DNA from: a virus
Lineage: Duplodnaviria; Heunggongvirae; Uroviricota; Caudoviricetes
DNA: 15,280 nucleotides
Strand: one strand, 5' to 3'
IMG/VR virus record: IMGVR_UViG_2740892369_000045
Below the pieces are notes generated by a model. The model was not told the origin of the DNA. It was given only the letters and a program-made list of their open reading frames with translations, and searched no databases. Shown piece by piece: positions 12,505 through 12,732 of the stretch; within the stretch, counting starts at the first letter, position 1; each line of letters opens with the position of its first letter. The position numbers were made by a program, and so were the translations under genes.

Positions 12505-12732
12505 ATGGATGATTCAGATCGTGCTCAGGCTGTGATGGAGCGGGGATCAGAACGCGCCCTTTGTAACCGGCTGACACGTAAGCGCCAGGCAGTGGATACG
12601 CCGGGCAGACGTGTCTGCGCGGACTGTGGTGGAGAGATCCCCGCCGCACGTCTTGTTGCTGTGCCTGATGCCATCCGTTGTGTGAACTGCCAGAACATCA
12701 TGGAGGCCCGTAATGTGGGTCAGCATCGTTAA
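12505..12732 (+). CDS. TraR/DksA-family C4-type zinc-finger protein
   Basis: 75 aa; C-x2-C...C-x2-C (CADCGG ... CVNCQ) in the arrangement typical of phage TraR/DksA-like proteins; strong RBS AAGGAAAAGG. Confidence 0.7.
   Translation: MDDSDRAQAVMERGSERALCNRLTRKRQAVDTPGRRVCADCGGEIPAARLVAVPDAIRCVNCQNIMEARNVGQHR

Follow-up and report, generated by a model that had tools for sequence, protein, structure and literature searches.

Our results identify the gene at positions 12505–12732 (plus strand, stop codon included) of the window, by which we mean the whole 15,280-nt stretch of DNA that was analysed, as a member of the TraR family. By all of the sequence and fold criteria that we tested, its 75-aa product is a TraR-family protein. 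The gene stands among the lysis and packaging genes of a Mu-like prophage, and, by analogy with characterized relatives, we think it likely that the protein is a TraR-like secondary-channel factor that is made late, works independently of ppGpp, inhibits rRNA and ribosomal-protein promoters and frees RNA polymerase. For this gene we infer polymerase binding, promoter effects and late expression, whereas its family membership, fold, motif conservation, synteny and purifying selection were observed directly.

The open reading frame itself, supported by the ORF listing, sequence profiles, the RefSeq annotation and substitution ratios, is confirmed as real and far from chance. It runs from ATG to TAA through 75 codons, and the listed translation, MDDSDRAQAVMERGSERALCNRLTRKRQAVDTPGRRVCADCGGEIPAARLVAVPDAIRCVNCQNIMEARNVGQHR, contains two cysteine pairs, C38xxC41 and C59xxC62, with a spacing of 17 residues. 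A Shine-Dalgarno-like box, AAGGA (12494–12498, plus strand), can be read 6 nt 5′ of the ATG, where it overlaps the TAA (12493–12495) of the preceding Rz1-like gene; the box is kept in variants of the locus, beside an A-run of variable length. The last 20 nt of the frame are shared with the next gene, which begins with the ATG at 12713. We place the start at M1 and not at M11 because the block MDxxDRAQ is the best conserved part of the N-terminus among 131 distant homologs. Comparison with E. coli variants at 88–90% nucleotide identity gave dN/dS values of 0.17–0.28 (Nei-Gojobori), with replacements confined to the helix-ribbon linker and the C-terminal tail and with every motif residue invariant. 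Purifying selection thus acts on the frame. We rejected the antisense ORFs of this region, as the substitution pattern fits the plus-strand frame, and an Rfam scan of the whole window returned nothing at the gathering score, so no RNA element competes with the coding reading.

Small accessory genes are common in prophages, and the gene might on that ground be regarded as a dispensable passenger, functionless in the present prophage. A dN/dS of about 0.2 and invariant motif residues among the E. coli variants speak against such a reading, as does the conservation of both the slot and the motifs across gamma- and beta-proteobacterial transposable phages, and we regard it as highly improbable. 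Databases also contain 97-aa versions of the protein (MNLLIWPERLLFRQE...). The A-run at 12497–12501 reads AAAA here but AAAAA in most variants, and the extra A brings an upstream ATG (12440 here) into frame, which accounts for the longer versions. We rejected these as a longer isoform and regard them as a gene-calling artefact, RefSeq keeping the 75-aa form in the same genomes.

An earlier note on this DNA had read the paired CxxC motifs as a zinc finger of the TraR/DksA type, and the profile searches bear this out. Both CxxC pairs are present, and the Pfam and NCBIfam models score above their curated cut-offs: the Pfam model zf-dskA_traR (PF01258) matched residues 36–66 with an E-value of 2.5e-12 (47 bits against a gathering score of 24.9), and the NCBIfam model of the TraR family (TIGR02419, C4_traR_proteo) matched with an E-value of 4.3e-22 (78.5 bits against a cut-off of 59.7). 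PHROG_54, described as a 'DksA-like zinc-finger protein', covered residues 1–74 (E = 9e-20). Narrower and neighbouring assignments were rejected. The model for the F TraR equivalog (NF010268) reached 25.7 bits against a cut-off of 108, and the models for DksA proper (TIGR02420, NF008045 and NF033459) gave 24–26 bits against cut-offs of 105–289, the protein being only 75 aa long. Nor does it appear to be a zinc-finger late activator of the Ogr/Delta kind found in P2-like phages, Ogr_Delta being missing among the Pfam matches listed to E = 1, a range in which the HMMER filters may drop matches above about 0.1. The reach of the homology searches depended on the method: a word-indexed search recovered close E. 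coli relatives only, whereas an exhaustive search of representatives recovered the wider family.

The structural evidence agrees with the profiles. By sequence, the nearest solved structures are those of F TraR (5w1s and 6n57; E = 6e-5, residues 2–69), followed by DksA. An AlphaFold model built from 81 sequences (mean pLDDT 80) has helices at residues 3–28, 47–52 and 60–73, and among PDB structures its fold comes closest to that of polymerase-bound TraR (6n57_M; probability 1.00, TM 0.50–0.52 over 73 columns). The remaining PDB fold matches were only to DksA-family structures, and the best viral fold matches were DksA/TraR zinc-finger proteins. The small size of the protein keeps the Foldseek E-values modest (1e-3). 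The domain search proposed in the earlier note thus recovered zf-dskA_traR, and with TraR nearest both by sequence and by fold, the predicted fold was found and not lost. RefSeq already lists an identical protein, WP_000342747.1, under the name 'TraR/DksA family transcriptional regulator'.

Several functional residues of TraR are retained. In F TraR, the N-terminal helix (residues 2–27) reaches to the active site of the polymerase, the globule (28–57) sits on the β′ rim helices and the C-terminal helix (58–73) lies on the β lobe/Si1 (PMC6970531). The DxxDxA motif acts at the polymerase active site, and the substitutions D3N/D6N cripple lambda Orf73 (PMC9239242); loss of the motif also cripples TraR and VP882 TraR. 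Alignments with TraR and with 131 distant representatives place the equivalent tip in codons 12508–12525 (plus strand; D2-D3-S4-D5-R6-A7), where D2, D5 and A7 align with TraR D3, D6 and A8. The C4 zinc ribbon, delimited by the Pfam match and the alignments, occupies codons 12616–12690 (plus strand; C38, C41, C59 and C62) and includes R49, the counterpart of the rim-helix residue R48 of TraR. Similarly, P46 aligns with P45, Q63 with Q62 and E67 with E66. In the family alignment, C38, C41, C59 and R49 never vary, and conservation of C62 is 90% or more; the counts among the 131 representatives are 122 for D2, 122 for D5, 110 for A7, 131 for R49, 129 for C62, 115 for Q63 and 116 for E67. Conservation is comparable in 50 distinct homologs from a Mu-type gene context (D2 in 47, D5 in 46, A7 in 46, R49 in all 50, Q63 in 49 and E67 in all 50).

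One set of TraR contacts is replaced. The TraR residues E46, R49 and K50 form an interface with β′Si3 on which full activation of amino-acid promoters depends, whereas inhibition of rrnB P1 hardly requires it (PMC6970531); here these positions hold A47, L50 and V51. The position of TraR R49 is Leu in 38 of the 50 Mu-type-context homologs, as it is in DksA. E44 stands at the position of TraR P43, whose loss weakens binding in TraR. The Si3-contact set is a functional sub-feature and no criterion for membership in the TraR family. Because these residues are replaced, we predict from the sequence that the protein would inhibit well and would be weaker in Si3-dependent activation.

These correspondences suggest how the protein could work. 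On the model of the homologous F TraR and lambda Orf73, its globular zinc-ribbon domain would dock on the β′ rim helices via R49, and the 26-residue N-terminal helix would pass down the secondary channel, bringing D2, D5 and A7 beside the active site, with the C-terminal helix touching the β lobe/Si1. Open complexes would then be destabilised without ppGpp, and the rRNA and ribosomal-protein promoters, whose open complexes are short-lived, would be turned off, so that polymerase and resources may be freed for late phage expression. An activator-dependent late promoter would drive expression of the gene along with that of the lysis and packaging genes, so that the protein would act towards the end of the lytic cycle.

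The genetic setting is that of a Mu-like phage. Many O157:H7 and other Shiga-toxin E. coli carry prophage DNA that is 100% identical to positions 11300–13900. Of 5426 complete E. coli genomes, 231 contain this stretch, and many of the 231 are O157 or other Shiga-toxin strains. Two Stx phage records include regions annotated as 'inserted Bacteriophage Mu-like phage' that match it at 98.3%. We assign the window to a Mu-like prophage of Shiga-toxin E. coli. The full Mu layout can be followed, beginning with a repressor-side HTH gene, a Mu-type transposase, a MuB-like AAA ATPase, Gam and GemA, continuing with the Mor-family activator, lysozyme, Rz, Rz1, the TraR-like gene, DUF2730, gp26-like and gp27 genes, and ending with a 554-aa gene, a DUF935 gene at the portal position, head and tail genes, an invertible tail-fibre region and com/mom. 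The 554-aa gene, named 'hypothetical protein' in RefSeq, stands at the position of Mu gene 28, and we take it as the terminase large subunit because it matched 'terminase' genes of related phages. The prophage corresponds in kind to the Mu-like Sp18 of O157 Sakai, which has been judged intact (PMC2669165). Strain FDAARGOS_293 carries the prophage in its frv operon region (L001 1–1463, L008 1–2563), with frvR on one side and a truncated aminopeptidase gene beside frvB on the other.

Within this layout, the TraR-like gene lies in what appears to be a single late transcription unit on the plus strand. A strong intrinsic terminator (10768–10791; 9-bp stem and T-run) follows gemA and precedes the Mor/C-family activator gene (10833–11258, plus strand), which was recognized by Pfam (PF08765, E = 2.8e-32) and by RefSeq and lies directly 5′ of the lysis-packaging operon. 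Mu has two genes of the Mor/C family, Mor and C, but RefSeq annotates a single one in this prophage. A putative late promoter of the lys type (11252–11298, plus strand) begins at the end of the Mor-family gene with a 25-nt box (11252–11276), TTTCTGATATTCCGCAAAGCCTGCC, followed after 16 nt by TACGCT (11293–11298), 31 nt 5′ of the lysozyme ATG. The lysozyme gene (11330–11830, plus strand; Pfam Phage_lysozyme) is followed by an Rz-like gene (11865–12293, plus strand) and an Rz1-like lysC gene (12253–12495, plus strand), both placed from RefSeq features in locus L001 at an offset of 1201; all three precede the TraR-like gene in the same transcription unit. Downstream, likewise on the plus strand, are a DUF2730 gene of the Mu gp25 releasin family (12713–13021; Pfam PF10805, E = 7e-20), a gp26-like winged-helix gene (13018–13308), assigned from synteny and from weak HTH matches below their cut-offs, and a gp27-family gene (13311–13892; Pfam Phage_Mu_Gp27, E = 2e-33), the counterpart of which is named 'terminase small subunit' in the Mu record. 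From the putative promoter past the gp27 gene, the genes abut or overlap, and a terminator scan found weak hairpins only. One of these, at 12625–12648 within the zinc-finger codons (C41 to A48), was considered as a terminator and rejected; it has a poor T-tail and is probably a chance structure.

The lysis genes have features of their own. The lysozyme begins MPKLPAPLRKKLIALVLAGAGTFTIA, that is, with basic residues followed by a weakly hydrophobic stretch rich in Gly and Ala; this start suggests a signal-anchor-release endolysin similar to Mu gp22, which fits the presence of a DUF2730 releasin gene downstream. No holin gene is annotated near the lysozyme gene.

The promoter box recurs elsewhere in the prophage. 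A near-identical copy, TTCCTGAAATCCCGCAAAACCCGCC, precedes the head protease gene, where 16 nt likewise separate it from TATGCT (L001 20380–20426, box at 20380–20404). The shared pattern, TTYCTGAWATYCCGCAAARCCYGCC plus 16 nt plus TAYGCT, has two matches in 27.6 kb where 0.00 would be expected, and no third copy of the box was found in the 44-kb prophage region, the tail/mom half included. Neither box promoter has a sigma-70 −35 element. The box with TAYGCT is probably a Mor/C-dependent late promoter, the box being the candidate binding site and TAYGCT the candidate −10 element. Such an arrangement is expected of activator-dependent late promoters such as Mu Plys and PI. In the Mu record, gene 24 holds the same slot, between genes 22 and 25; Mu gene 25 is reported to be expressed from a late transcript, Plys being marked on the map, and its product gp25 is a releasin (PMC9239132). 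Together, the Mor-family gene, the promoter box, the lack of a strong terminator and the synteny with Mu make late expression a well-founded expectation. The position in a late operon given in the earlier note is accordingly supported by the sequence: a Mor-family gene and a putative late promoter precede the gene, lysis and packaging genes surround it, and its slot is that of Mu gene 24.

The same setting invites the question of whether the protein serves the phage's own promoters. It could bind RNA polymerase and yet have been selected to tune the phage late promoters together with the Mor/C-type activator, host shut-down being secondary. The gene follows directly after a Mor-family gene and a conserved late-promoter box; moreover, TraR raises transcription from F promoters, and the study of phage homologs left open what they do on their own phage promoters (PMC9239242). 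However, the Si3 contacts that support activation by TraR are absent here, and the gene sits within the very late operon that it would stimulate, so that it could act only as feedback. We consider a selected role chiefly on phage promoters unlikely and favour inhibition of host rRNA and ribosomal-protein promoters as the main activity.

The slot is shared well beyond this prophage. Using a 13-sequence alignment to find related viral loci in IMG/VR, we collected 80 loci with the closest relatives, 24 of them close and 56 distant (39–59% identity). Mu-type gp26, gp27, terminase or portal genes lie directly downstream on the same strand in 75 of the 80 (24/24 close, 51/56 distant), and GemA and Mor are usually found upstream in the Mu-type loci. 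The 50 distinct homologs counted above are encoded at the distant loci. In the Vibrio Mu-like phages martha 12B12 and 1.028.O, a gene annotated as a 'DksA-like/TraR-type zinc finger' stands between a gene for a spanin-like coiled coil and a DUF2730 gene, which is followed by the gp26, gp27, terminase and portal genes. Burkholderia transposable phages keep the TraR-like slot as well, and already in 2008 this gene had been noted at this position in a transposable phage. A TraR clade specific to transposable (Mu-like) phages is part of what we propose as the best explanation.

Mu itself provides the most awkward fact for this explanation. Both Mu gp24 and KS10 gp7 are encoded, like the TraR-like protein, after the lysis genes and before gp25/gp26/gp27, and KS10 gp7 carries the annotation dksA/traR zinc finger. 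Mu gene 24 (L002 3525–3719, corresponding to NC_000929 11524–11718) is listed in the Mu record as a 'hypothetical protein'. Its product resembles the family in having a CxxC-17-CxxC arrangement and a ribbon that matches the family profile (hhalign E = 2.9e-5, probability 74%, over the ribbon only). However, the 64-aa Mu gp24 has ExxNxA in place of DxxDxA and Val where TraR has R48, stops immediately after its second CxxC without a C-terminal helix, and gave no match to Pfam zf-dskA_traR. The study of Mu lysis says nothing on gp24, gene 24, zinc, TraR or DksA (PMC9239132). From its sequence, Mu gp24 is probably a degenerate or re-purposed TraR relative. As it keeps the ribbon without the tip motif, the slot can persist without the canonical polymerase motif; either the polymerase function has disappeared in Mu, or the slot fulfils a second role for which the ribbon suffices.

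A second function could lie in lysis or packaging. The protein might act via a lysis or packaging partner, such as the DUF2730 releasin or gp26/gp27, to affect lysis timing or packaging, with polymerase binding secondary or lost. The gene has a fixed place between the spanin and DUF2730 genes, its 20-nt overlap with the latter offers translational coupling to a membrane-tethered DUF2730 releasin, and Mu gp24 retains the ribbon without the polymerase tip motif; there is also a precedent in VP882 TraR-QisA, in which a TraR homolog is complexed with a phage partner. Even so, DxxDxA, which is known only for its role at the polymerase active site, is kept in 46–47 of the 50 Mu-type-context homologs, and the VP882 phenotype still requires the motif. 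Mu lysis, moreover, is explained by the endolysin gp22, the two-component spanin gp23/gp23.1 and the releasin gp25 (PMC9239132). For these reasons we hold a mainly partner-based function to be quite unlikely, and a late-made inhibitor that works through the polymerase secondary channel remains the reading that we prefer.

A more speculative reading goes further. The TraR clade of transposable phages, made late and fixed in a holin-less lysis cassette between the spanin and releasin genes, might couple the state of the polymerase to the end-game of the infection, with Mu gp24 as a tip-less derivative. Such coupling could work through a complex with the membrane-tethered DUF2730 releasin or with gp26, in analogy to VP882 TraR-QisA, or by clearing polymerase off a chromosome riddled with replicating Mu copies. 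We consider this wider proposal unlikely.

The identity of the gene is already public, and its identification adds nothing to the present annotation. It is covered by the RefSeq name, the published descriptions of the family mechanism (PMC2613031, PMC6970531, PMC9239242) and the 2008 notice in a transposable phage. As a class, TraR homologs are now emerging as proteins of phages and plasmids by which the transcription of the host is reprogrammed with no stringent response. Two angles appear to be new. The Mu-type clade is placed late, in a lysis-packaging operon, whereas all studied phage homologs with a known context are early, and it lacks the Si3-contact residues that TraR uses for activation. 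If tested, both angles would modestly widen knowledge of when and how phages use the TraR mechanism.

Among known systems, F TraR is the closest parallel. The two proteins have similar lengths (73 aa in TraR and 75 aa here) and share an N-terminal helix, a C4 zinc-ribbon globule and a C-terminal helix, with DxxDxA at the extreme N-terminus and equivalents of TraR R48, P45, Q62 and E66. They differ in that identity is only about 35%, the linker between helix and ribbon is two residues longer in the 75-aa protein, and TraR is encoded in a conjugative transfer operon rather than a phage late operon. The likeness to DksA (1tjl) is more limited, comprising a C4 ribbon with an 'RL' pair after the first CxxC and the same binding site on polymerase. 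The DksA tip also carries DxxDxA. In contrast to the 75-aa protein, DksA is 151 aa long, has a two-helix coiled coil and needs ppGpp.

The tested phage homologs, lambda Orf73, P2 Orf82, VP882 Orf61, VHML Orf8 and X. bovienii Gp34, provide the other comparison, and all five bind polymerase and inhibit rrnB P1 (PMC9239242). Like the protein described here, they are phage-borne members of the same family of about 70–75 aa, and a ppGpp-independent effect on host promoters would be expected here too. Identity to the 75-aa protein is 29–37% for the four compared, lambda Orf73, P2 Orf82, VP882 Orf61 and Gp34. By eye, Gp34 looks closest to P2 Orf82, both ending in -KHYR-. DxxDxA is complete in the 75-aa protein but imperfect in P2 Orf82 and Gp34. 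Conversely, each tested homolog has analogues of both R48 and R49 of TraR (PMC9239242), whereas the R49 position is Leu here. Finally, lambda Orf73, P2 Orf82, VP882 Orf61 and VHML Orf8 are encoded in early or lysis-lysogeny regions, while the Mu-type clade occupies a late lysis-packaging operon.
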